Below, in pieces: positions 4,487 to 63,968 of a stretch of 64,000 nucleotides of DNA; the stretch's first letter is position 1, and every line of letters begins with the position of its first letter. The position numbers and the translations under genes are program-made. Source of the stretch: Robertkochia solimangrovi (lineage in GTDB: Bacteria > Bacteroidota > Bacteroidia > Flavobacteriales > Flavobacteriaceae); assembly GCF_007279655.1 (NCBI RefSeq), contig NZ_QKWN01000006.1, forward strand, positions 138,033-202,032. Reading direction: 5' to 3'. Under the pieces are notes generated by a model. That model saw only the letters and a list, made by a program, of their open reading frames with translations, made no database searches and was not told where the DNA came from.

Positions 4487-6088
4487 TTAAAGTTCCGGTC
4501 CGGCTTGGTAAATCGCCTCATCGACGACACCTTTAAACTTTCTGAAGTTCTTATGAAATTCCTGTGCCAAATTCCGTGCTACCCGGTAGTATTCCTCTAT
4601 ATTATTCCAACTGTGGCACGGATTCATAATATTTTCAGGTATATCATTGCATGAAAGTGGCATCGACAATTTAAAAACCGGATGTATTCTGTAATTCTCT
4701 TCTGTTAATTCATCCATGTCACCATCGAGTACCGCATTGATCATCGCCCGGGTGTATTTTAAAGGAATCCGTTTGCCGACACCATACACTCCACCCGTCC
4801 AGCCAGTATTAACAAGCCATACCTTTACCTGGTTTTGACATAATTTATCTTGTAACATCGCCGCATACTTTACCGGATTCAACGGTAAAAAAGGCGCTCC
4901 GAAACAGGCTGAAAAGGAAGGTTGAGGCTCCGTAATACCGCATTCAGTACCAGCAACTTTGGCGGTATAGCCAGAAATAAAGTAATAAGCAGCCTGATTC
5001 AAGTTCAATCTGGACAGTGGAGGCAATACCCCGAATGCATCTGCTGTTAGAAAAAATACATTTTTCGGATTTCCACCTATCGATGGAAATTGCACTTTCT
5101 TCAAAAAATTAATCGGATAACTTACTCGTGTATTTTGTGTAATGGAAGTATCCTTATAATCAATCTCATCTTTAACATCTGTCATCACATTCTCCAATAA
5201 GGCTCCCTTTCTAACTGCATTGAATATTTCAGGTTCATTTTCAGCCGAAAGATTGATCACCTTTGCGTAACATCCTCCCTCAAAATTGAATACGCCAGCA
5301 TCCGACCAACCATGCTCATCATCTCCTATAATTTTACGATTCGCCACTGAAGAAAGTGTTGTCTTACCAGTACCTGATAATCCGAAGAATAGTGCGGTAT
5401 CCCCAAATTCACCAATATTTGCCGAGCAATGCATGGGTAAGACCTGGTGGTTCAGTGGTAGCAAAAGATTCAGAACCGAGAATATGGCCTTTTTAATCTC
5501 ACCGGTATAACCGGTACCTCCTATTACTATTATCTTTTCCTTTATATTAATAATAGTGAAGTTCGCCGCCCTTATATTGTGAACGTTCGGATCTGCTTTA
5601 AATCCCGGGGCATTAATAACCGTCCAATCAGGCATGAATGCTTCCAATTCTTCAAATTTTGGCCTTAAAAACATATTATAAACAAATAGATTTGACCAGG
5701 GTAATTCATTAATTACCCGGATAGGCATGCGAAACCGATCGTCAGCACAAGCATAACAATCCCTAACATATAAAGTTCCCTTCAGGTAAGCGGTAACGTC
5801 TTTATATAATAGAGAAAATTCATCGCTGCTAACAGAAATATTAATCGCTCCCCAGTTGACCTTATCCCGTGTAAAATCATCTAAAACGATATACCGATCC
5901 TTTGGCGATCTACCTGTGAATTCACCGGTATTTATCATGAGAACCCCTTCCCGCGATTCTTTTCCCATTCCGGATTTTGTAACCATTTTCTGAAGTTGCT
6001 CCGGTGGCAATTGATAGTGAATTTTATCCGCATCTATACCTATTTTATCCTTCAGGAATGATGATATTGGATTCATCTCTTTTAGCAT
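4487..6088 (-). CDS. pckA: phosphoenolpyruvate carboxykinase (ATP)
   Basis: 533 aa. Kinase-1a/P-loop signature FFGLSGTGKTTLS and overall PEPCK-ATP family layout. Confidence 0.9.
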   Translation of the reverse strand: MLKEMNPISSFLKDKIGIDADKIHYQLPPEQLQKMVTKSGMGKESREGVLMINTGEFTGRSPKDRYIVLDDFTRDKVNWGAINISVSSDEFSLLYKDVTAYLKGTLYVRDCYACADDRFRMPIRVINELPWSNLFVYNMFLRPKFEELEAFMPDWTVINAPGFKADPNVHNIRAANFTIINIKEKIIVIGGTGYTGEIKKAIFSVLNLLLPLNHQVLPMHCSANIGEFGDTALFFGLSGTGKTTLSSVANRKIIGDDEHGWSDAGVFNFEGGCYAKVINLSAENEPEIFNAVRKGALLENVMTDVKDEIDYKDTSITQNTRVSYPINFLKKVQFPSIGGNPKNVFFLTADAFGVLPPLSRLNLNQAAYYFISGYTAKVAGTECGITEPQPSFSACFGAPFLPLNPVKYAAMLQDKLCQNQVKVWLVNTGWTGGVYGVGKRIPLKYTRAMINAVLDGDMDELTEENYRIHPVFKLSMPLSCNDIPENIMNPCHSWNNIEEYYRVARNLAQEFHKNFRKFKGVVDEAIYQAGPEL

Positions 6089-6476: not shown

Positions 6477-8603
6477 ATGAAACAAAAAACACCTTGGGGT
6501 CTTGCCCTTAACACCGCTGTTATTGCCTTCGCAGGATTACTGCAGAGCCAATACGCTAATGCGCAGGAAATGACGGGCTATTCGCCTTCAGCTATAGCCG
6601 CTCAGGAAAATCTGGAAACCACATTTTTGAATACCGTTGATTTCCCACAATACCGCGAACATCTCAGCCAGCTTACCAAACAACCGCATATTGCAGGGAC
6701 CCCTGCCAATGAAAAGGTTGCAGATTACATTGCTCAGATTATGGGGAATGCGGGGATGGATGTGAAGCGTTATCCCTATGACATCTATATGGCACCGGAA
6801 GCCGGAACTTCGCTGGTGGAGCTGGTCACCCCGATCAGGTTACCGCTCAATCAGCAGGAAAATATTCTCCCTGAAGATCCGTTTTCCGAGGATCCGACCC
6901 TGCTGAAGGGATGGAACGCCTATTCCGGAAGCGGTGATGTAACTGCGGAGGTTGTATATGCCAATTACGGTACCAAAGAAGACTTTGAGAAATTGGCAGA
7001 AATGGGCATCGATGTTAAAGGTAAGATCGTACTGGCACGTTATGGAGGGAACTTCCGGGGGTACAAAGCCAAATTCGCTGAAAAATATGGAGCCTCAGGA
7101 CTGATCATTTTTACCGATCCCGGAGATAGTGGTTATATGAAAGGACTCACCTATCCGGAAGGAGTGTATTATAATGAGAGTGCTATTCAACGTGGGTCTC
7201 TTCTCACGGTAGATTATACCGGAGATCCCCTTACCCCGTTTGAACCCGCACTTCCTCTTGATGGAAAGAAAAAGGTGAAACGCCTCGATCCCGCTAAAAC
7301 CGACTTACACACCATACCGGTACTACCGTTACCCTATGGTTCGGCAAGAGAGATCATCAGCCGAATGAACGGACAGGTGGTTCCAAAAGGCTGGCAAGGA
7401 GGCTTGCCCTACACCTATCGTCTGGATGGGGGGAGTGAACTAAAGATCCGTTTAAAAGTGGACCAGAAAAAGGATTTTGTAAGGGTGAACAATATTGTGG
7501 GTACCTTTAAAGGGAGTACCTATCCTGATGAATGGATCATTTTGGGATGTCACTATGACGCATGGGCATTTGGTGCTACCGATCCGAACAGCGGGACAGC
7601 TATGCTGCTTTCTCTGAGTGAAGCCCTGGGAGAATTGGAAAAGAAAGGATTTTCTCCGAAAAGATCCATCCTGATAGCCCATTGGGATGCTGAGGAACAC
7701 GGGGTTATCGGTTCTTCAGAATGGGTTGAACAGATGAAGGATGAATTAGGAGCCAAGGCCGTTGCCTATATGAATTTTGACGGAGGGGTTTCCGGCAAGA
7801 ACTTTGGGGGCTCTTCCTCTCCCAGCTTAAAGAATATCATGACCGAAATGGCTAAAAAAGTGGATTATCCCTATACCGACAAATCGCTTTTTGATCAATG
7901 GAAAGGCGATAAAGAACAACCGAATATCGGGAATCTGGGCGGAGGTTCAGACCATATCGGTTTCTATATGCATGTGGGGGTGCCATCGCTGAGCGGTGGT
8001 TCGGGTGGTCCTACCCTCTATCATACCAATTACGACGATTTTCATTTTTATGAAACCTATGTAGATCCCGAATTTAAAATGGGCGGAACGATTGAACAAT
8101 GGGCAGGATTAATGGCCCTGCGCATGGCAAATGCTGATGTGATACCGTATGATGTAAAGCGCTATGCGACTGATCTGAAAGACCATTTCGACAATGCCTT
8201 GAAAAAGGTAAAAACCATTCAAAGTGATTTCAACGGATTTACCAAAGTGGATGCAGCTATGGAAGTTCTGGAAAAGAATGCTTCATTGCTGGAGGACAAA
8301 CTTTCTGCAAGTATCCGAAATGGTTCCTTATCTAAAAAAGAAATAAAAAGCATCAATAAACAACTTATTGCCCTTGAAAAGAGTTTTATCGACGAGAAGG
8401 GAATGTATTACGGTTCCTGGTACAGATCGTTATATGCTTCGACGGATCCTTTCAGTGGTTATGCTTCCTGGATTCTTCCCGGTATTGAATACGAAGTATC
8501 GCTCGGTTCCACCGATCGCATGGAAGAATGGGATCAGCGTTATGCAGCTGCCATAGAATCCCTTGCCGGTAAAATACTCGCTTTGGCACAAAGTCTGTCC
8601 TGA
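6477..8603 (+). CDS. M28-family peptidase with PA domain and transferrin-receptor-like dimerisation domain (glutamate carboxypeptidase II-like)
   Basis: 708 aa. Signal peptide, PA-domain region, M28 zinc-site context (HWDAEEHGVIGSSEW, MNFDGG) and a C-terminal TFR-like dimerisation region. Confidence 0.8.
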   Translation: MKQKTPWGLALNTAVIAFAGLLQSQYANAQEMTGYSPSAIAAQENLETTFLNTVDFPQYREHLSQLTKQPHIAGTPANEKVADYIAQIMGNAGMDVKRYPYDIYMAPEAGTSLVELVTPIRLPLNQQENILPEDPFSEDPTLLKGWNAYSGSGDVTAEVVYANYGTKEDFEKLAEMGIDVKGKIVLARYGGNFRGYKAKFAEKYGASGLIIFTDPGDSGYMKGLTYPEGVYYNESAIQRGSLLTVDYTGDPLTPFEPALPLDGKKKVKRLDPAKTDLHTIPVLPLPYGSAREIISRMNGQVVPKGWQGGLPYTYRLDGGSELKIRLKVDQKKDFVRVNNIVGTFKGSTYPDEWIILGCHYDAWAFGATDPNSGTAMLLSLSEALGELEKKGFSPKRSILIAHWDAEEHGVIGSSEWVEQMKDELGAKAVAYMNFDGGVSGKNFGGSSSPSLKNIMTEMAKKVDYPYTDKSLFDQWKGDKEQPNIGNLGGGSDHIGFYMHVGVPSLSGGSGGPTLYHTNYDDFHFYETYVDPEFKMGGTIEQWAGLMALRMANADVIPYDVKRYATDLKDHFDNALKKVKTIQSDFNGFTKVDAAMEVLEKNASLLEDKLSASIRNGSLSKKEIKSINKQLIALEKSFIDEKGMYYGSWYRSLYASTDPFSGYASWILPGIEYEVSLGSTDRMEEWDQRYAAAIESLAGKILALAQSLS

Positions 8604-8668: not shown

Positions 8669-8778
8669 ATTTAGGAGCTCCGAACAAAAAATCAGGTATA
8701 TTATGGAATTCCCTTCCCCCTGATTGAAAAGCAACCCACAAGAATTTAGTATTTTAACGGTCTTAAATTATCAAATCC

Positions 8779-9966
8779 ATGCCTGTCGGACTCATTGTTA
8801 CACTTAAAAAGATCCTGCTCGTACTCGCTGTTTTTAAGGGTATTAGTGCCTATTCCCAATTCGATAGCATTCCCTTTACGGTAAGTATTAATTTTGATCT
8901 GAAACAATCCGAAACCCTGGGGCTTTCGAAAATACAGTCCGCGGAAACAATTACGATTTTCAGACCCGAACCTGACGAAAACACCTATAATCATGGTGTT
9001 GTTCTTTTTCCTTTTAAAGATAAGCTCTATGCGCAATGGCAATGTTCCTCAAAAGATGAAGACGAACAGGATACTCATGTTGTTTATTCGGTAAGTGTTG
9101 ATGGAAAAAAATGGAGCATTCCCAAAGCGTTATCGCCTTCATATCCCAACAGGATCACAACCTCCGGTGGCTGGTGGAGTGACGGAACACAACTTGTCGC
9201 CTACCTCAATGTATGGCCCGATTCGATCAGTCCGAAAGGAGGATATACCGAATACATGATCTCTAAAGATGGAACATCATGGTCATCCCCTGAATCTGTG
9301 CTTGATCGTGAAGGGGACCCCATAGAAGGTATTATCGAACAAGACCTCCGGCTTTTGGAGGATGGAAGGATCCTAACTGCATTTCACCTACAGCCCGGAT
9401 TACATATCACCCCCTTTTATACGGATGATCCATCCGGAATAAGCGGTTGGACTCCCGGAGTGATGCCATTAAATCCTTCTGGAACTGCTATGAGCAGAGA
9501 AATCGAGCCATCCTGGTTCTTCCGGAAAGATACATCACTGGTCATGGTATTCAGAGACCAGAACAGCACCTTTAAAAAATTAGCTTCCATCAGTTTTGAT
9601 CAGGGTGCTCATTGGACGCTCCCGGTAATGGTGGACACGCCAGATTCCAGAGCCAAACAAAGTGCTGGAAATCTTCCGGACGGAATCGCCTTTATGGTAA
9701 ATAATCCTACCGGAAATAAGAATCGGTTTCCACTGGTGATCACCCTGAGTAAAGATGGATATCATTTCGATAAAGCCTTTCTGCTCCGGGATGGTAAAGA
9801 AGACCTTCAACCCATGAGACATGAAGGAAAATACAAACGACCAGGTTATAGTTATCCCAAATCTGTTATTTGGAATGATTTCCTCTATGTGGCCTACGCC
9901 ACGAATAAGGAAGATGTTGAAGTTACCCGTATCCCCCTTAAAGTTCTCTCACAGCTTTACCGCTAG
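8779..9966 (+). CDS. BNR/Asp-box repeat (sialidase-fold) secreted protein
   Basis: 395 aa. Signal peptide and several Asp-box motifs (SVDGKKWS, SKDGTSWS, SFDQGAHWT, SKDGYHF). Confidence 0.6.
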   Translation: MPVGLIVTLKKILLVLAVFKGISAYSQFDSIPFTVSINFDLKQSETLGLSKIQSAETITIFRPEPDENTYNHGVVLFPFKDKLYAQWQCSSKDEDEQDTHVVYSVSVDGKKWSIPKALSPSYPNRITTSGGWWSDGTQLVAYLNVWPDSISPKGGYTEYMISKDGTSWSSPESVLDREGDPIEGIIEQDLRLLEDGRILTAFHLQPGLHITPFYTDDPSGISGWTPGVMPLNPSGTAMSREIEPSWFFRKDTSLVMVFRDQNSTFKKLASISFDQGAHWTLPVMVDTPDSRAKQSAGNLPDGIAFMVNNPTGNKNRFPLVITLSKDGYHFDKAFLLRDGKEDLQPMRHEGKYKRPGYSYPKSVIWNDFLYVAYATNKEDVEVTRIPLKVLSQLYR

Positions 9967-12318: not shown

Positions 12319-13140
12319 ATGAAAAAGCTAAAATTAAAAGACGGGGTTGAGATCTTCTATAAAGACTGGGGGTCCGGACAGCCCCTGGTATTTCACCATG
12401 GATGGCCTTTAAGCAGTGATGACTGGGATGCTCAAATGATGTTCTTTCTTGAACAAGGGTATCGGGTCATCGCACATGATCGTCGCGGACATGGTCGTTC
12501 GAGTCAAACGTATTCCGGAAATGAAATGGACACCTATGCCGCAGACGTGGCTGCTTTGGTAGAAGCACTTGATCTTAAAGATGCAATCCACATCGGACAT
12601 TCTACCGGAGGTGGTGAGGTCATACGATATGTAGCTAAATATGGCAAAGGTCGGGCAGCAAAAGCAGTACTGATTGGGGCTGTTCCGCCGGTAATGGTAA
12701 AAAGCGATAAAAATCCTGAAGGTGTTCCCATCTCAGTTTTTGATGAAATCCGCCTGAATACCGCAACCAAACGCTCTCAGTTCTATCAGGATATCACGTT
12801 ACCCTTCTACGGGTATAATCGGGAAGGTGCTGAAATCTCTCAGGGAGTACGCGATAATTGGTGGCGTCAGGGGATGATGGGTGGTATTAAACCTCAATAT
12901 GATTGTATAAAAGCCTTTTCAGAAACCGATTTTACAGAAGATCTTAAAAGTGTGGATATACCCGTGTTGCTAATGCATGGTGAGGATGACCAGATCGTAC
13001 CCTTTGAAACCTCCGCTAAAATAGGAATCACGCTGCTTAAAAAAGGTACACTGATATCCTATCCCGGTTTCCCGCATGGAATGCCAACTACTGAGGCAGC
13101 TACAATCAATAAAGATCTGCTCGATTTTATAAGATCCTGA
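12319..13140 (+). CDS. alpha/beta hydrolase, non-heme haloperoxidase/arylesterase family
   Basis: 273 aa with HGWPLSSDDWD...GHSTGGGEV (nucleophile elbow) and overall chloroperoxidase-like layout. Confidence 0.8.
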   Translation: MKKLKLKDGVEIFYKDWGSGQPLVFHHGWPLSSDDWDAQMMFFLEQGYRVIAHDRRGHGRSSQTYSGNEMDTYAADVAALVEALDLKDAIHIGHSTGGGEVIRYVAKYGKGRAAKAVLIGAVPPVMVKSDKNPEGVPISVFDEIRLNTATKRSQFYQDITLPFYGYNREGAEISQGVRDNWWRQGMMGGIKPQYDCIKAFSETDFTEDLKSVDIPVLLMHGEDDQIVPFETSAKIGITLLKKGTLISYPGFPHGMPTTEAATINKDLLDFIRS

Positions 13141-13185
13141 ATAATCTAATGATACTTACATTTAGTTTATCGATCAATTTTCCGA

Positions 13186-25806: not shown

Positions 25807-26778
25807 TTGCATAACATTATGAGTACAGACACTGTTAAACGTTTCGACAGGATCATTGCGATTCTGGTCCAGTTACAATCAAAGCGAATCGTAAAAGCCC
25901 AGGAACTAGCCGATCGTTTTGAAGTAAGTCTGCGCACCATCTATCGGGACGTCAGAACCCTGGAGACCTCGGGCATCCCCATTGTAAGTGAAGCAGGTGT
26001 AGGGTATTCGATCATGGAAGGTTACCGCCTTCCTCCGGTCATGTTCACCCGTGAAGAAGCAGGTAGTTTTGTCGCTGCTGAGAAGTTCATGCAAAAATTT
26101 CTGGATAAGACCCTGGGAAGTTATCATGAATCAGCCATGTTCAAGATCAAATCGGTGCTAAGAGGGAGAGAAAAAGACTGGGTGGAAGCACTTGAATCTC
26201 AAATCGTAGTCGATCCTTCTGCAGATCTTTTCAATACGGAGATACCCGACGCATTACAGATCATTTTTGAAAGTATTGCTGAAAAGAATCAGGTTTTTCT
26301 TAGTTATCACGCTTCCCGTAGTGACGAAACTACGGAAAGAAACATCGAACCGGTAGGACTCTTTCATGAAAATGGATTCTGGTATATCATGGCTTATTGC
26401 CATTTTAGAAAAGATTATCGACAGTTTCGCACCGACAGGATCGTGGATATTAAACGTACTAACTTAGACTTTACCCTGGATCATGGAAGTTTAGATGAAT
26501 ATCGAAAGGACACCGATTCCTGTCCGAAGATAAAAGTCAGGATCGCTGTAGATAAACATGTGATCCCTTATATAAACAGTGGAAAGAATTATTATGGTTT
26601 CGTTTCCCAGCAAGCTGAAGGCAATACGGTTGAAATGACTTTTATGACCCGCGATATTCACAACAGCTTTTCGAGATGGTACCTGATGTTCTGCGACTAC
26701 GCCACCATCCTCGAACCGGAAAGTTTGAAAATCAGGGTACGTGAAATTATTGAAAAAGGACTCACTAACATTGGTTAG
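25807..26778 (+). CDS. WYL-domain transcriptional regulator (HTH + WYL + WCX-like C-terminus; YafY/PafBC-like)
   Basis: 323 aa. N-terminal HTH (VKAQELADRFEVSLRTIYRDVRTLE), a WYL core (GFWYIMAYCHFRKDYRQFRTDRI) and a C-terminal extension. Confidence 0.8.
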   Translation: MHNIMSTDTVKRFDRIIAILVQLQSKRIVKAQELADRFEVSLRTIYRDVRTLETSGIPIVSEAGVGYSIMEGYRLPPVMFTREEAGSFVAAEKFMQKFLDKTLGSYHESAMFKIKSVLRGREKDWVEALESQIVVDPSADLFNTEIPDALQIIFESIAEKNQVFLSYHASRSDETTERNIEPVGLFHENGFWYIMAYCHFRKDYRQFRTDRIVDIKRTNLDFTLDHGSLDEYRKDTDSCPKIKVRIAVDKHVIPYINSGKNYYGFVSQQAEGNTVEMTFMTRDIHNSFSRWYLMFCDYATILEPESLKIRVREIIEKGLTNIG

Positions 26779-26785
26779 TTACCAT

Positions 26786-29497
26786 TCAGATCTCTTCTTC
26801 CATCATTTCCGAGGTCTCTTCCTGACCATTATTAACGGTAGTTTCATCTTCTTCAGGCTCTTCAATGGTCTCACCGGCAGCGTTCCTTTGCTCCAGTAAA
26901 AAATATAAACCATTCATGGAATCTTCATAAACAGAGATAGCAACTCCGTCACTGTTCTCTGCCAACTCATTATTTTCATTATACCGGCTGATCTTACCAA
27001 CAATTCCGGAGTTGAACAGTTCATAATCATAAATGGCAGTTCCGTAGGTATCATTCATAAGCTTCAAATCTGCACCATAGGTTTCAGACCGACTGATCTC
27101 ACCCACCGGCTCCCAGGTATAACGTATCTTATGATATCCGTAATCACCGATCACAGGAACACCGTCCTTATCAAAATATGCATAGGTCAGGGTATGCCCG
27201 AGTTCATTTAATTCGATTTTTGTAAAGGAGATTCCAGCATAATTATCAACAGTACTATCATCTTCATCCAGAAACCGGAGTGAAGTTAACCAGCCACGCT
27301 CATTATAGGTCTTAACCTCTGCACTGATCCCGGTTGCTTCTCTTGCCCGTCTGCCATGCTTATCAAAAAATGCGATCTTCAGTAATGAGCCGTATGCGTT
27401 ATAATATTTCTTGCTGGTACAGGCACCCTCAATCAATTTTGAATCGATACCATACTTTTGAAGAATCGTTTCATTTCCCCATTTATCGTAAGATTTTCGG
27501 GTCATATGAACTCCCTCGGCCAGGATTGGTTCCCCTGTACCATTAAAAATACGGGACTCAATCAAGCGGTCACGACTATCATATTTAAATTTAATTATGC
27601 TTTTTATGCCTTCCTCTTCCGTCGCAGTGTATTCTGTTTGCTGGATGACATTTCCATGATCATCAAAATCGTATTCATAACGGGCTACACCATCAACGTT
27701 GGCAATATTGATTCCCAGGGAATCCAGTGATCTTTTCTCCCTGGCATACCCTTCAGCATTACGATTAAAAGTATATGTACAGATTCCATCCGGGGTTTTT
27801 GCCGGATTTTCGTCCGCTCCGAAATAACGCTCCATTAATAAATTTCCCGAAGCGTCCTTTTTAGATTCGATGATGGCCACATTATTAGTATTCTCTATAA
27901 TATTCCCATAGGCATCGAGATTTAATTGACGAACAATGCTATCACCCATATATTCATAACGGGTACCTCCCCATTTATAATCATCATACCTGAGAACATA
28001 TCCCGGATAATAAGTAGCCTCATATCGCTTCCTTCCCAGATCATCATACGCTGTAACTCTTTCGAAGATATCGTCGTTGGCAATAATGGGCTCATGGTTT
28101 ACATTGAATCGCTTCTCGCTTATTTCACGATCATTACGGTCATAACGATATTCATATATGGATGCTCCGTTATCATCATAAGTAAGCTGCCCGTCTTCAT
28201 CCAGAGAGCTAACCTGAATTACATTCCCTCGTTCATCATATTCATATTTCAGATTGAAATCTGATAAATATTTGGCAGGCCTGCCCTGGTCATCATACAT
28301 ACGGTAAGCGATCTTTCGATGTTGCATGTTATATTCAAATTCAGACCGGCCTATGAGGTCTTTATCCAGAACCAGCTGCAGCTTATGATCCAGATTTTCC
28401 ACGCTTATGGTATGTCCGCTTCCGTCGAGTTTTATACGACTATGAAAAATTCCATGCTCATCAGCTACCGATTTGCCTTTTTTATCAAGATATGAACTGA
28501 CATAAGTAGAATCGACGGCATTGTAAACCCATTTGATCTGACTATAATTGAAAGGGGACACTTTTTGATCCTTAGCATCCAAAAACTCGATCAACCGTTC
28601 ATCATCACTTGTTTTTACAGATCTGTGTCGGTAGTTTTTAAGTTTCGTATTGAAGGTGCCATCACTGTTTAAAAGCCTGAATTCGATTTCACCATCTCTG
28701 TTTTTAATGATACGGGTGATGGCAGTTTCGAAATATCCTCCGTTAACCAAGGTTCCGTTCTTATAAAACCTTATTTCTTTGACCCAGGCACTTGCGTTAT
28801 GAATCTCATAAACTTCATTATTTTCAAAATCGTAATCATCGGCTGGATAAGAATATAGTATCGTTCCATCATGGGTAACGTAGATCTTTCTGTAATACTT
28901 CGAGCTATTACTCGAATAACGACGGTAATGCTGAATGTTCTCATCCCCATAATAGGCAGTCTGGCGTAGCCAGTCATCGATCTGTAATTCCCAAAACCTT
29001 TGTTTTGGTGTATCGGCATTATGGTCGGCTTCAGTGTCATACTGATTCTGCAAACTATCCCGCAAGGTATTGTATTTGAGTCTCAGGGAATCCATTACCG
29101 CATAGTTTAGTCCATTCATTCCCAATGTTACAATATCTCTTCTCAAAAGTCGCGCACAATATTCCGTTATATTGAAATGATATTGTTCGTGGGTGAGTAC
29201 ATTATAGGAATCGTATTCATCCTTCAATTTTTCCGATTGATTCGGATCCATATAAGCAAAGACCCGGTTATTGGTATCTGTGATTAGTCGCGGACACGAT
29301 ATTCCGGAATAGATGGTTGCCACGTATTCGTCTTCCAAATAAGAAACCTCTGTAAAATCATCCCAGGATAGTGATCTTTCTGACCAGGTTAGATTCGGTT
29401 TGACTATCGTTGATTTCCTTTCATTGTGGGTAACACCAAAACCAAGTATTAGGATCAGTAAAATTCCGGAAGTAATAAGATGGTGTTTAGTTTTCAT
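26786..29497 (-). CDS. secreted multidomain protein: N-terminal HExxH (DUF922-like putative zinc peptidase) domain, long RHS/YD-type repeat region and an acidic disordered C-tail
   Basis: 903 aa. Signal/TM N-terminus and an HEQYH motif. Repeated YxYDxxGN units (YEYDERGNV, YEYDFDDHGNV, KYDSRDRLI, TAYDDLGRK). C-terminus is EEPEEDETTVNNGQEETSEMMEEEI. No RHS core/toxin tip was recognised. Confidence 0.55.
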   Translation of the reverse strand: MKTKHHLITSGILLILILGFGVTHNERKSTIVKPNLTWSERSLSWDDFTEVSYLEDEYVATIYSGISCPRLITDTNNRVFAYMDPNQSEKLKDEYDSYNVLTHEQYHFNITEYCARLLRRDIVTLGMNGLNYAVMDSLRLKYNTLRDSLQNQYDTEADHNADTPKQRFWELQIDDWLRQTAYYGDENIQHYRRYSSNSSKYYRKIYVTHDGTILYSYPADDYDFENNEVYEIHNASAWVKEIRFYKNGTLVNGGYFETAITRIIKNRDGEIEFRLLNSDGTFNTKLKNYRHRSVKTSDDERLIEFLDAKDQKVSPFNYSQIKWVYNAVDSTYVSSYLDKKGKSVADEHGIFHSRIKLDGSGHTISVENLDHKLQLVLDKDLIGRSEFEYNMQHRKIAYRMYDDQGRPAKYLSDFNLKYEYDERGNVIQVSSLDEDGQLTYDDNGASIYEYRYDRNDREISEKRFNVNHEPIIANDDIFERVTAYDDLGRKRYEATYYPGYVLRYDDYKWGGTRYEYMGDSIVRQLNLDAYGNIIENTNNVAIIESKKDASGNLLMERYFGADENPAKTPDGICTYTFNRNAEGYAREKRSLDSLGINIANVDGVARYEYDFDDHGNVIQQTEYTATEEEGIKSIIKFKYDSRDRLIESRIFNGTGEPILAEGVHMTRKSYDKWGNETILQKYGIDSKLIEGACTSKKYYNAYGSLLKIAFFDKHGRRAREATGISAEVKTYNERGWLTSLRFLDEDDSTVDNYAGISFTKIELNELGHTLTYAYFDKDGVPVIGDYGYHKIRYTWEPVGEISRSETYGADLKLMNDTYGTAIYDYELFNSGIVGKISRYNENNELAENSDGVAISVYEDSMNGLYFLLEQRNAAGETIEEPEEDETTVNNGQEETSEMMEEEI

Positions 29498-30272: not shown

Positions 30273-30535
30273 GGTAAATCTTTCTTTTAAACTAAAAAAT
30301 CATTTTATGGATTTTATCACATCCTGAATCCTTAAATGAACTACTTTCATTGGTGAATTTTAAAGGATTTACTGTGATACAACTCATAATTCTTTGGTGT
30401 CCGATTAAAATCTTATGGTCTGCTGGAGCAATGGAAACCAATTAATTAAGGATTATGAATTATGGAAAATAGTTAGCTCCATTTCTTCATTCTAAATTAA
30501 TAATTCTCAATTCTTCATTCTTAATCTTTAATTTA

Positions 30536-30585
30536 TGTAACCAGTTACGTAATTTGTATTACATTTGCGTAACCGGTAACGTATC
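30536..30585 (+). promoter_or_regulatory. direct repeats GTAACCRGTWACGTA ×2 upstream of the marR-like gene (candidate operator)
   Basis: gtaaccagttacgtaa at 30536-30551 and gtaaccggtaacgta at 30569-30583. Both lie immediately 5' of the MarR start at 30592. Confidence 0.3.
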
Positions 30586-32551: not shown

Positions 32552-33002
32552 TTTATATATTTAATTGGTTTACTAATAAATTTCCAATTCTAAACTTTCG
32601 GTCATTTTCATTGTAATGCCCCTAAAAGCTTATAGGTTTCAGCTATGCAATTACCGGCATTCCATCTGAACAATCAGGATCATCAGCTTTTCCTTAGTAT
32701 TTTAAAGTATGTTTAAGACAGTGGGCACTATTCCTTAATCCTGTTTCAATGCTGAAAAACGATTCTGAACGGCTAACTGTCTAAACCCACTTCTCCTACC
32801 TTCGGATCTAAAGAGACCAGTGAGCGGTCAGATTTACTTTGTAAGCAACAAATGACGGATTACCGGTATTGATAGCACTTTAGCCTTGCGACCGTGATCA
32901 TTTTAAAGATGATCGAACTTCAAACAAACCTTTCAGTCCGTGCATAAAAATGGCGACTTAAGCCATGCGATACTGTTCTACCAATTGAACTAACTTCCTT
33001 TG

Positions 33003-33040
33003 ATCAGGAAGACGGGATTCGAACCCGCAACACGTACTCG
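33003..33040 (-). other. tRNA 3'-end-like fragment (T-arm + acceptor 3' strand) without a complete cloverleaf
   Basis: The minus strand reads GTGTTGCGGGTTCGAATCCCGTCTTCCTGA. This is a canonical T-stem/loop (GCGGG-TTCGAAT-CCCGT) followed by 7 nt and a discriminator. No matching 5' acceptor, D arm or anticodon arm could be built from the upstream sequence. Confidence 0.3.
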
Positions 33041-33232
33041 AGAACCATTATATGGTCAAGGTCCCAAACCTTCAATCGGGCTGTATACAGATTACTGATA
33101 CCCAAGGGTAAGTCTCTGCACATCGATGCTATTGGAAACATCAGACCCGGCCTGATCGAAATCCTTAACCTCCGGTATCGATGAATGCCACCAAAACCTA
33201 CCGGAGGTTTGTATCCCTCCTTTCAGGAACAC

Positions 33233-36440: not shown

Positions 36441-36635
36441 TAAGATTCAGTAATTATTCCCGGGCAGACCAGCATTGTTGCTCCCGAATTAAACAAGTCT
36501 TTACCGTCATGAATTCCTTACAAAAAAAGTTCATTTTTGAAGGGAACAAATGTAAAGGATAAGAGGGATGAAAAATTGCAGAAATCAAATCGTGAGTTGT
36601 AAATTTCAAACAAAATCCTATGGAAAGGCAGTAAT

Positions 36636-36700
36636 AATGGGGACAATGGGGACACTAATGACACTGGGGACACTAGTGACACTAGTAACAATGGGGACAA
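36636..36700. repeat. 9-bp periodic tandem repeat (GACACTAGT family) ×7
   Basis: atggggaca/atggggaca/ctaatgaca/ctggggaca/ctagtgaca/ctagtaaca/atggggaca. Confidence 0.8.
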
Positions 36701-36730
36701 TGTTGATAATGGCAAAGATTAACCTTCTTG

Positions 36731-36846
36731 AATTCTCAATTCTACATTCTAAATCCATAATCCTTAATTCATAATCCTTAATCCTTAATTCATAATCCTT
36801 AATCCTTAATCCTTAATCCATAATCCTTAATCCATAATCCTTCATT
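36731..36846. repeat. 25-bp dispersed motif followed by a (CCTTAAT/YCATAAT)n 7-bp tandem repeat ×13
   Basis: aattctcaattctacattctaaatc, then ccataat ccttaat tcataat ccttaat ... The same 25-mer, with 2 mismatches, occurs at 30500-30524. Confidence 0.8.
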
Positions 36847-36861
36847 TAAAAAAACAAAAAA

Positions 36862-36902
36862 CCAGTTTGCAGTTACGTTTTACGGTCGATACAAACTGGT
36901 TC
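36862..36902 (-). terminator. rho-independent terminator of the molybdopterin oxidoreductase operon
   Basis: On the minus strand: AACCAGTTTGtatcgaccgtaaaacgtaactgCAAACTGGTT followed by ttttgttttttt. Confidence 0.55.
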
Positions 36903-36925
36903 TTCAAAATTAATTATAAAGACGA

Positions 36926-39680: not shown

Positions 39681-40061
39681 GATATTTTTTTTACAAATTA
39701 GTGAAATTTAATCAGGATATAATTAAATATTTCACGCAATAAGTTAATGAATTGAAACATTCTGTCAGTTTTAACATAATTTTATAAAGCACTGAAATCA
39801 GCATGCAATTATCAGGATATGAATATCGATTATGAGTTTAGAAAATAGAGTACGGAAAACGGAAAACTGCTTACAGCTTTACAAGGTGACAGGTGACAGC
39901 GTTATCCGTGACGGAAAAAAGACAGCTTACTGCGTTACTCCTTCACTGCTTCACAAGGTAACAGGTAACTTTGTAACTAAAACAAAAAGAGAACAGATTT
40001 TAAAATTTTGTTTTGAAAATTGAAGAATTTAAATTTACTTTGTTTTTCAAAGTACTTTTAT

Positions 40062-57993: not shown

Positions 57994-58037
57994 GTGTATT
58001 TTTAATTTCGCGGCAAAAATAAGGCTTTTAATTAGAA

Positions 58038-58152
58038 ATCTAAATTTAGAATGGAGAATTTAAAGTAAAACTAATATTAGTGATACTAGTAACAATAGTA
58101 TTATTAGTGACACTAGTGTCATCTGTGTCACCCGTATCATCAGTGTCACTAG
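58038..58152. repeat. inverted copy of the 25-bp motif followed by the 9-bp periodic GACACTAGT-family repeat ×9
   Basis: aaatttagaatggagaatt is the reverse complement, with 2 mismatches, of the 25-mer at 36731. It is followed by aatattagt gatactagt aacaatagt attattagt gacactagt gtcatctgt gtcacccgt atcatcagt gtcactagc. Confidence 0.75.
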
Positions 58153-61982: not shown

Positions 61983-61988
61983 GACCCT

Positions 61989-62084
61989 ATTAGTAACACT
62001 GGTGACACTAGTGATATTGGTGACATACATTAGTTTCACTAGTGTCACTTTATATCACCAGTGTCATTTATACCATTAGTAGTA
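61989..62084. repeat. 9-bp periodic GACACTAGT-family repeat (third locus)
   Basis: tattagt aacactggt gacactagt gatattggt gaca... ttcactagt gtcacttta tatcaccagt gtcatttat accattagt. Confidence 0.75.
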
Positions 62085-63653: not shown

Positions 63654-63968
63654 ATTTACGCCAGCAAAACAATCAAGGTGAAGCGAAGCAAACCCATAAT
63701 TTACGCCAGTAAATCCATAAAGCCGAGGCAAAGCAAACCCATTATTTACGCCAGTAAATCCATCAAGGCGAAGCGAAGCAAACCCATTATTTACGCCAGT
63801 AAATCCATAAAGCCGAGGCAAAGCAAACCCATGATTTACGCCAGTAAATCCATAAAGGCGAGGCGAAGCGAACCCATGATTTACGCCAGTAAATCCATAA
63901 AGGCGAGGCAAAGCAAACCCATTATTTACGCCAGTAAATCCATCAAGGCGAGGCGAAGCGAGCACTAA
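63654..63968. repeat. 45-bp tandem repeat ×7, each unit carrying an 18-nt perfect hairpin (GATTTAC-GCCA-GTAAATC); array runs to the window edge
   Basis: Units begin at 63654, 63699, 63744, 63789, 63834, 63879 and 63924. Consensus: atttacgccagtaaatccatMaaRgcgaRgcRaagcRaacccatK. Confidence 0.8.

Follow-up and report, generated by a model that had tools for sequence, protein, structure and literature searches.

Dispersed 7-bp and 9-bp repeat arrays in spacers of Robertkochia solimangrovi, probably lineage-specific tandem repeats rather than a clearly bounded mobile element

Introduction

Short sequence units of 7 and 9 bp recur in the spacers of a 64,000-nucleotide stretch of the Robertkochia solimangrovi genome (hereafter the window, meaning the whole of the DNA that was analysed; GC content ~0.41). 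A sequence-only reading had described them as a family of modules, consisting of 9-bp units built on a palindromic core, a separate 25-bp motif, and tandem CCTTAAT-type heptamers, dispersed over four intergenic loci and behaving like a composite MITE- or REP-like element. Rehm et al. 2015 (PMC4692102) remark that repeats with units of 6-9 nt have seldom been investigated, and the locus raises the question of whether such units are carried from spacer to spacer by a bounded element, or whether they are tandem arrays that expand where they lie. The four loci, A to D, are listed in Table 1 with the features that adjoin them.

Table 1. Coordinates of the repeat arrays and associated features in the window
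Feature	Position	Strand	Description
Locus B, inverted CCTTAAT-type units	30441..30465	-	~2.5 units; blastn-short E 3e-5 to locus A
Locus B, AATTCTN-type array	30483..30533	+	7.3 units (TRF); 25-mer with 2 mismatches at 30502-30526
Locus A, whole	36632-36846	+	9-bp array, then one 7-bp-period array
Locus A, 9-bp array	36632..36714	+	~7.4 direct units TGGGGACAC / TAATGACAC / TAGTGACAC / TAGTAACAA; TRF
Locus A, 25-mer	36731..36755	+	3.4 AATTCTN heptamers: AATTCTC AATTCTA CATTCTA AATC; TRF period 7, pattern search
Locus A, heptamers	36752..36846	+	13 units CCTTAAT / CCATAAT / TCATAAT; TRF score 133
Terminator beside array A	36846..36906	-	AACCAGTTTG...CAAACTGGTT then T run; dG -19.8, z -4.2
Cluster of short units	39852..39967	.	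ACGGAAA x2.3, AGGTGAC x2.3, GCTTCACT x3.9, GGTAACA x2
Locus C, heptamer remnant	58038..58062	-	AATTCTC CATTCTA AAT; 16/17 match to locus A
Locus C, 9-bp units	58070..58152	.	forward arm 58070-58114, inverted arm 58115-58152; TRF
Locus D, 9-bp units	61986..62084	.	forward arm then inverted arm; TRF, fold

Four repeat loci within 32 kb

Every one of the four loci lies between open reading frames, and a span of 32 kb holds them all. By Pfam, their neighbours are ordinary housekeeping genes. Exact and near-exact searches with the repeat units gave counts that exceed dinucleotide-shuffle expectation by large factors. The 9-bp unit TAGTGACAC has 3 exact matches in the window against 0.19 expected, GACACTAGT has 6 exact matches, all within loci A, C and D, and CCTTAATCCTTAAT, with up to 2 mismatches allowed, has 16 matches where 1.0 is expected; the 25-mer of locus A, for which the expected number is 0, returns at locus B with 2 mismatches. 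When the 30 intergenic regions were compared all against all by blastn, the only pairs above noise were A-B, A-C, A-D and C-D, and the sequence common to these loci is confined to unit stretches of 13-25 bp. Within the window, 3 loci contain the 9-mer and 2-3 contain the heptamers. The window contains 16 intergenic short tandem arrays versus 4.4 in Markov shuffles, ~4x expectation, and the top TRF score in its intergenic DNA is 133 against a null maximum of 59. Tandem units of 5-11 nt beyond chance, an intergenic position, and occurrence of a unit at several loci, three of the features by which LSSRs are recognized, are found within the scope of the window. Comparison with Rfam, at the gathering score and at E<=1, assigned no family to any locus, with only chance microRNA-type hairpin matches at D, and TAACTGA repeats are absent from the window.

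The repeats at the four loci are real, non-coding and far above chance. The claim of a dispersed, intergenic and modular repeat family therefore holds, in that shuffles, TRF and blastn recover all four loci as non-random, and the possibility that the sequence-only reading had raised against itself, of chance low-complexity matches, is contradicted by unit counts, tandem-repeat scores and alignments far beyond the null.

Structure and context of locus A

Locus A lies on the downstream side of a Fer2/xanthine-dehydrogenase-family operon and on the upstream side of the gene for an MBL-fold hydrolase, all of these being on the minus strand (Pfam). Its 9-mer unit is TAGTGACAC, with variants that include TGGGGACAC and TAGTAACAA, and the core of the unit, ACTAGT, is self-complementary. 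TRF delimits three tracts: 36636-36702 with period 9 and 7.4 copies, 36731-36754 with period 7 and 3.4 copies, and 36752-36842 with period 7, 13.0 copies and a score of 133, the last of these agreeing with the 13 tandem CCTTAAT/YCATAAT units seen before. The 25-mer is in register with the CCTTAAT-type array downstream of it, and is not a module of its own, corresponding instead to the first 3.4 units of the 7-bp-period array. Two features of the locus are signs of recent in-place expansion, namely the higher-order periods of 18 bp and 27 bp that TRF detects in the 9-mer array, and an exact 21-bp (3-unit) duplication in the heptamers, where 36762-36782 is identical to 36783-36803.

The supposed 16-bp palindromic core of the 9-bp units, GTGACACTAGTGTCAC, occurs nowhere exactly, its nearest matches having 1 mismatch at 58107 and 2 at 36667 and 62033. 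Because the 9-bp units of locus A are all direct, there is no palindrome there, and the 9-mer array forms no hairpin (fold z -0.3 on the plus strand and -1.8 on the minus strand); the plus strand of the heptamer array is likewise unstructured, with a fold dG of -0.6. The stable hairpin that directly follows the heptamers (Table 1) stands outside the repeat family; it is a normal intrinsic terminator that belongs to the xanthine-dehydrogenase-family gene upstream.

Two observations concern the surroundings of locus A. Homologs of the neighbouring MBL hydrolase are at most 62% identical and mostly from Weeksellaceae such as Kaistella and Chryseobacterium, and no orthologous-site comparison from this side of the locus was obtained from homologs at that level of identity. 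Upstream of the Fer2/xdh operon, TRF reports a composite cluster of short units (39852..39967, Table 1), of the same feature class as the four loci and composed of different units; it is among the 16 intergenic arrays counted above.

Structure and context of locus B

Locus B occupies the spacer from which a DUF805 gene and a MarR-family gene diverge (Pfam), with its AATTCTN array upstream of the latter. What it shares with the other loci is heptamers only, and it possesses no 9-mers. Its inverted units have an exact 18-bp match to locus A, and a 57-nt alignment of its AATTCTN array to locus A scores 59 against a null maximum of 28. Both pieces that had been reported here, a second 25-mer with 2 mismatches and a reverse-complement heptamer pair, are present at shifted positions: the first lies at 30502-30526 by pattern search rather than at 30500-30524, and the second at 30444-30465 by blastn rather than at 30428-30450, the earlier coordinates being off by 2-16 bp in places. 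Folding of locus B is not significant. With z between -0.3 and -1.8 at A and B, a hairpin or terminator role general to the loci was rejected.

Several features near locus B were noted in passing. Between the array and the start of the MarR-family gene, the stretch 30535-30585 contains the near-palindromic sites GTAACCAGTTACGTAA and CGTAACCGGTAACGTA, which by sequence look like operator sites. Further along, on the minus strand at 32944-33051, a full-length match to YrlA (Y RNA-like) falls below threshold (36.3 bits versus a gathering score of 69, E 2.9e-5); it lies in a 681-bp spacer whose neighbours encode Band_7 and TPR proteins, with no adjacent Ro/Rsr-type gene, and ARAGORN found no tRNA. 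At 25807-29497, a gene for an HTH-WYL regulator adjoins a 903-aa ORF that has no Pfam match at E<=1e-5.

Fold-back arms at loci C and D

Two minus-strand genes, one for a PhoD-like phosphatase and the other ndk, flank locus C (Pfam). Its 9-bp units begin 11 bp past the PhoD-like stop codon, and its heptamer remnant abuts the ndk -7 promoter box (58014-58021). The inverted 25-mer claimed for this locus is a partial match, shorter by one heptamer, that agrees with locus A at 16/17 positions (58044-58060) and is not the full 25-mer. Locus D, by comparison, fits its earlier description as a copy with 9-bp units only, given as 61989-62084, and it fills the whole of the 102-bp spacer between convergent genes for a cyclophilin-FKBP isomerase (PPIase) and an M20 peptidase (Pfam). 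Both loci are quasi-palindromes of ~85-100 bp at gene 3' ends, as REP and REPIN sequences are, although their ends differ; A and B have no such structure. The fold of locus C is weak (z ~-2). Locus D folds into a hairpin of ~95 nt with dG -37.2 and z of -4.7 on the plus and -4.0 on the minus strand. A terminator consensus scan, in which stems could have at most 20 pairs, loops 3-8 nucleotides, and a T run was required, gave no match in the spacers of C and D, and hairpin D is without a canonical T run. From its position, hairpin D probably marks transcript ends, or stabilises 3' ends, in both directions. Past the M20 peptidase gene, a separate 45-bp unit ATTTACGCCAGTAAATCCATAAAGGCGAGGCGAAGCAAACCCATT is repeated 6.8 times with 90% identity (63654-63959) in a spacer stretch that reaches nearly to the window end.

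The 9-bp period of these units is a multiple of three, and it could be asked whether the arrays are coding remnants or small ORFs, with the 9-mers specifying Thr-x-Asp repeats, for instance as decayed C-terminal tails. One frame does read (T-x-D)n, at D this frame runs straight on from the PPIase stop codon, and in other phyla many GACACT 9-mer arrays sit in long ORFs as DTx repeats. The arrays of the window, however, offer little room for coding: mechanical ORFs of 65-68 aa cross the array at A, those fully inside the arrays at B, C and D do not exceed 36 aa (the longest at C), longer ones there merely clipping the edges, and array D is covered by none. Nor could inverted arms encode the same peptide or 7-bp arrays code at all, and in relatives the orthologous proteins for the most part differ little in length (PPIase 366-375 aa in most matches, PhoD 342-350 aa). 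The coding reading, largely refuted by the short ORFs, the inverted arms and the 7-bp period, was rejected and retains hardly any probability.

A related search concerned the 9-mer in other phyla. Across genome contigs, GACACTNNNGACACTNNNGACACT has at least 120 matches in diverse phyla, many of them coding for DTx repeats. Control patterns of matched composition (CAGTCA and ACTCAG, at the same spacing) were likewise abundant in viral contigs, among the matches listed, so that the cross-phylum GACACT matches do not show GACAC to be special.

Comparison with relatives

The history of loci C and D can be read against two congeners, R. flava (L139) and R. aurantiaca (L140), for each of which a 21-kb syntenic locus was compared. 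The gene order NDK-PhoD-DHH-FKBP-PPIase is kept in both, and in R. flava M20 adjoins PPIase as it does in the window. The PhoD/NDK spacer is 170 bp in the window versus 56 bp in R. flava and 55 bp in R. aurantiaca, the surplus of ~115 bp being locus C, and the ndk -7 box TAnnTTTG, conserved with the congeners, has been retained beside the array. At the site that locus D occupies in the window, the PPIase/M20 spacer of R. flava contains two canonical terminators. In the 21-kb loci of both congeners, TRF detected no array with a period of 7 or 9 bp that reached three units. That the sites of C and D are free of arrays in congeners that conserve gene order indicates, by sequence comparison, that both were gained in the R. 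solimangrovi lineage. The repeats of the four loci look like recent acquisitions.

The same comparison bears on a functional explanation, according to which the arrays are binding sites for a DNA- or RNA-binding protein (a regulator, a nucleoid protein, or a post-transcriptional factor) and have been selected in several spacers. Consistent with this, GACAC and ACTAGT, the cores of the units, are conserved and the adjoining positions variable, arrays adjoin promoters at the ndk -7 box and in the MarR-gene spacer, and TAACTGA heptamers that precede start codons have been suggested to act in this way (PMC4679880). Yet the orthologous spacers of the congeners, flanked by the same genes, have no arrays, spacings of 9 bp and 7 bp are out of helical phase, orientation and distance to the neighbouring genes are inconsistent over A-D, and the four sets of flanking genes have no common function by Pfam. 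Selection as binding sites is accordingly an improbable explanation for the arrays.

For locus A, the closest xdh ortholog (77% aa identity) is encoded on a metagenome contig, L508, on which a perfect (TAGGCAG)x7.9 array at the contig end (12265-12319) begins 5 bp past the orthologous xdh stop codon, at the site that corresponds to locus A. The assembly appears to break within this repeat.

Arrays of other units are present in further relatives. R. marina has CGTACCC, ACAATCT/TAATCCT and TAACTGA-like heptamer arrays, and its spacer corresponding to the 39852..39967 cluster holds different heptamer arrays from those of the window. On its contig L509, the regions 8746-8806 and 4987-5445 comprise TAACTGA-like heptamers and the arrays of the Fer2/xdh-upstream spacer; the former (CAAACTG, TAACCGA, AAACTGA) end a few bases before a start codon, and the spacer upstream of the Fer2/xdh operon combines several other heptamer arrays with two occurrences of the motif CAGATCGCCACGTTCAYT. 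In Joostella CR20, two or more spacers contain 8-bp GATTGAAA/GATTAAAA arrays; on its contig L147, dispersed 8-bp arrays of GATTGAAA / GATTAAAA / GATTTAAG are found at 5693-5740 and 12861-13147, one 8-bp array lying inside a 120-bp higher-order repeat of 2.3 copies with 97% identity. GC-rich structured spacer elements with GTCGAG and GCCTGCC...GGCAGAC motifs occur both in Joostella (L147 11215-11320) and in R. marina (L509 5080-5230 and 8290-8420), and may represent another dispersed element family.

Two observations from other genomes belong beside these. In Bizionia arctica (L071 813-1034), ~25 perfect TTTAGACAC units fill a spacer upstream of a gene that by eye resembles tgt. Six Bacteroidales genomes (L128, L095, L107, L137, L051 and L109) have three non-coding GACACTNNN units followed ~100 bp on by an inverted set, NNNAGTGTC, and L107 and L137 are near-identical around this set.

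Similar units in unrelated organisms

If the 25-mer marked a specific element, its distribution outside the window would be of interest. Searched as AATTCTCAATTCTWCATTCTWAATC, it is found exactly in 5 metagenome contigs from 3 unrelated organisms (GC 0.37, 0.42 and ~0.50), always within heptamer arrays that are accompanied by an inverted partner. The 25-mer is thus a form that a generic (AATTCTN)n satellite takes repeatedly. The two arrays that were folded, on contigs L143 and L145, are AU-rich hairpins between genes. On L145, a 15-unit AATTCTG/TTAATTC array (7420-7527) is open in one frame and mechanically fuses ORFs judged from their translation to be RmlD-like and RmlA-like into a 592-aa frame.

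Arrays of CCTTAAT also occur in 18 unrelated viral contigs, two of which have them in most between-gene spacers. In IMG/VR contigs L002 and L005 (sample 3300009494), (AGGATTA)n, which on comparison is the reverse complement of the CCTTAAT units of the window, occupies most spacers between co-directional genes; of three spacers examined in L002, two have arrays followed by a pyrimidine-rich CCCTTAT-type stretch resembling the inverted partner. In the metagenome-assembled genome 'bacterium STA_72' (L104 and L034), long chains of differing 7-bp and 9-bp arrays lie within single spacers, and a conserved motif, GGATTTATCCCGAAGGGTTTATCTGAG, found on both contigs, is scattered among them.

A bounded mobile element or seeded tandem arrays?

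A further claim made for the loci was that of a MITE/REP-like composite, and one part of it stands: C and D, each with a forward and an inverted arm and of similar length, are quasi-palindromes that adjoin gene 3' ends and are missing from the orthologous spacers of two congeners. These observations, together with the strong hairpin at D, the order of 9-mers followed by AATTCTC common to A and C, and a C-D alignment with 75% identity over 80 bp, are what would be expected of a MITE/REPIN-like non-autonomous element, in which a ~85-100-bp 9-mer palindrome, sometimes linked to heptamers, was inserted by a transposase or RAYT encoded elsewhere and then underwent local decay or expansion. The part of the claim that is not supported is the bounded element itself. 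When units were permuted within the arms of C, 319 of 1000 permutations scored equally well or better against D, so the C-D alignment reflects shared units and arm layout rather than colinear descent, and colinear homology of the two loci was rejected. Near-identical colinear copies, which define MITEs, were not found among the loci, whose common matches extend over 13-25 bp only; the unique sequence shared between them never exceeds 25 bp, and unit number, order and orientation are different at every locus. Set against the empty sites of R. flava and R. aurantiaca, loci C and D have no visible target-site duplication in their flanks, and their ends are not conserved. Locus A has direct units only, locus B lacks 9-mers, and heptamer arrays bearing the 25-mer exist in unrelated organisms. 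Finally, no transposase was found among 15 window proteins, mostly encoded by genes flanking the loci, that were scanned against Pfam. A MITE/REPIN-like element is thus a rather unlikely source of the four loci.

Instead, the loci are probably dispersed 7-bp and 9-bp LSSRs, lineage-specific and STRR-like, that have been expanded by slippage. Under the slippage reading, replication slippage would lengthen and shorten the arrays, and copy-number variation of the tandem modules, as suggested earlier, is plausible, with the exact 21-bp duplication inside the heptamers of locus A as indirect support. In C and D, the self-complementary ACTAGT core of the 9-mer could have been the point at which strand-switch (fold-back) copying gave rise to the inverted arms. 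That one 9-mer and one set of heptamers recur at four spacers in 32 kb is more than slippage by itself can account for, and we infer from this some seeding between spacers: new spacers would be reached by the copying of short multi-unit seeds, through ectopic recombination or some form of mobilisation, after which each locus would diverge independently. The string TAGTGAYACTAGTAACAAT is common to A and C, and an exact 18-mer to A and B (blastn). In both A and C, 9-mers are followed by AATTCTC heptamers on one strand, a hint that a composite seed was transferred whole. Most copies are probably near-neutral spacer DNA, and a change of copy number in the promoter-adjacent arrays (A, B and C) could alter promoter context.

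A more far-reaching version of the seeding idea would have R. solimangrovi and its relatives possess an active process by which spacers, above all those at gene ends, are seeded with short-unit arrays, 9-mer and heptamer seeds are copied between loci, and fold-back arms able to replace canonical terminators are built; such a process is unlikely. On this version, the array of a different unit that L508 has at the A-orthologous site would suggest hotspots prone to arrays, with units that turn over quickly, and a 'mobile satellite' mechanism unlike IS/MITE or RAYT transposition. Regardless of how they arose, the loci form a compact test case, with the same units in four spacers within 32 kb and clean empty sites in congeners, to which the position of locus D in place of two canonical terminators adds value. 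Were their copy number to vary, the arrays could be used as markers for typing, and could be a source of expression variation for ndk, the MarR-family regulator and neighbouring genes.

Relation to known repeat systems

On present evidence, the loci exemplify something already known and do not constitute a new system, and by analogy would probably be the flavobacterial counterpart of the cyanobacterial STRR and of the heptamer arrays of Gramella, Aequorivita and Elizabethkingia. Such repeats (STRR, LSSR and TAACTGA arrays) have been catalogued for decades, and to our knowledge there is no agreement on their mechanism of spread or their function. The STRR (short tandemly repeated repetitive heptamers) recur in a genome at numerous scattered positions outside coding sequence, and we know of no established mechanism for their spread. 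Their likeness to the present loci, here counted within the window, consists of identical heptamer units in tandem at dispersed non-coding sites; they differ in belonging to another phylum and in unit sequence, and the loci add a family of 9-bp units.

Elements with defined boundaries provide a second comparison. The pneumococcal BOX is a modular, MITE-like element with the structure boxA-boxB(n)-boxC and conserved, bounded end modules. The loci resemble it in being modular and intergenic, with an internal unit of variable copy number, but have neither conserved ends nor unique modules, the '25-mer' being itself array sequence. RAYT-mobilised REP/REPIN sequences are closer to C and D, since both are imperfect palindromic doublets of ~100 bp that form hairpins at gene 3' ends and are lineage-specific. 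Unlike REP/REPIN sequences, however, C and D have arms with an internal 9-bp periodicity, show no conserved terminal tetranucleotide, and are colinear as copies at the unit level only, and no RAYT was identified among the window proteins scanned.

The closest resemblance is to LSSRs and to the arrays described in other Flavobacteriaceae. Composite heptamer direct repeats have been reported from spacers of Gramella forsetii, Aequorivita sublithincola and Elizabethkingia (MacGregor 2015, PMC4679880), and close relatives have the same spacers without them (PMC4679880). Heptamers are the commonest LSSR class, for which polymerase slippage has been invoked, according to the summary of Mrazek 2007 given in PMC4679880. 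These arrays differ from the loci in that MacGregor's TAACTGA is replaced here by CCTTAAT, AATTCTN and TAGTGACAC, in that the 9-mers here are arranged in forward and inverted arms, and in that none of the loci lies directly upstream of a start codon. As far as that summary describes LSSRs (5-11 nt units; Mrazek, Guo & Shah 2007), they and the MacGregor arrays have in common with the loci head-to-tail units of 7-9 nt beyond chance in intergenic DNA, several different units per spacer with heptamers dominant, and a presence in one species, the same spacer of close relatives being free of them.
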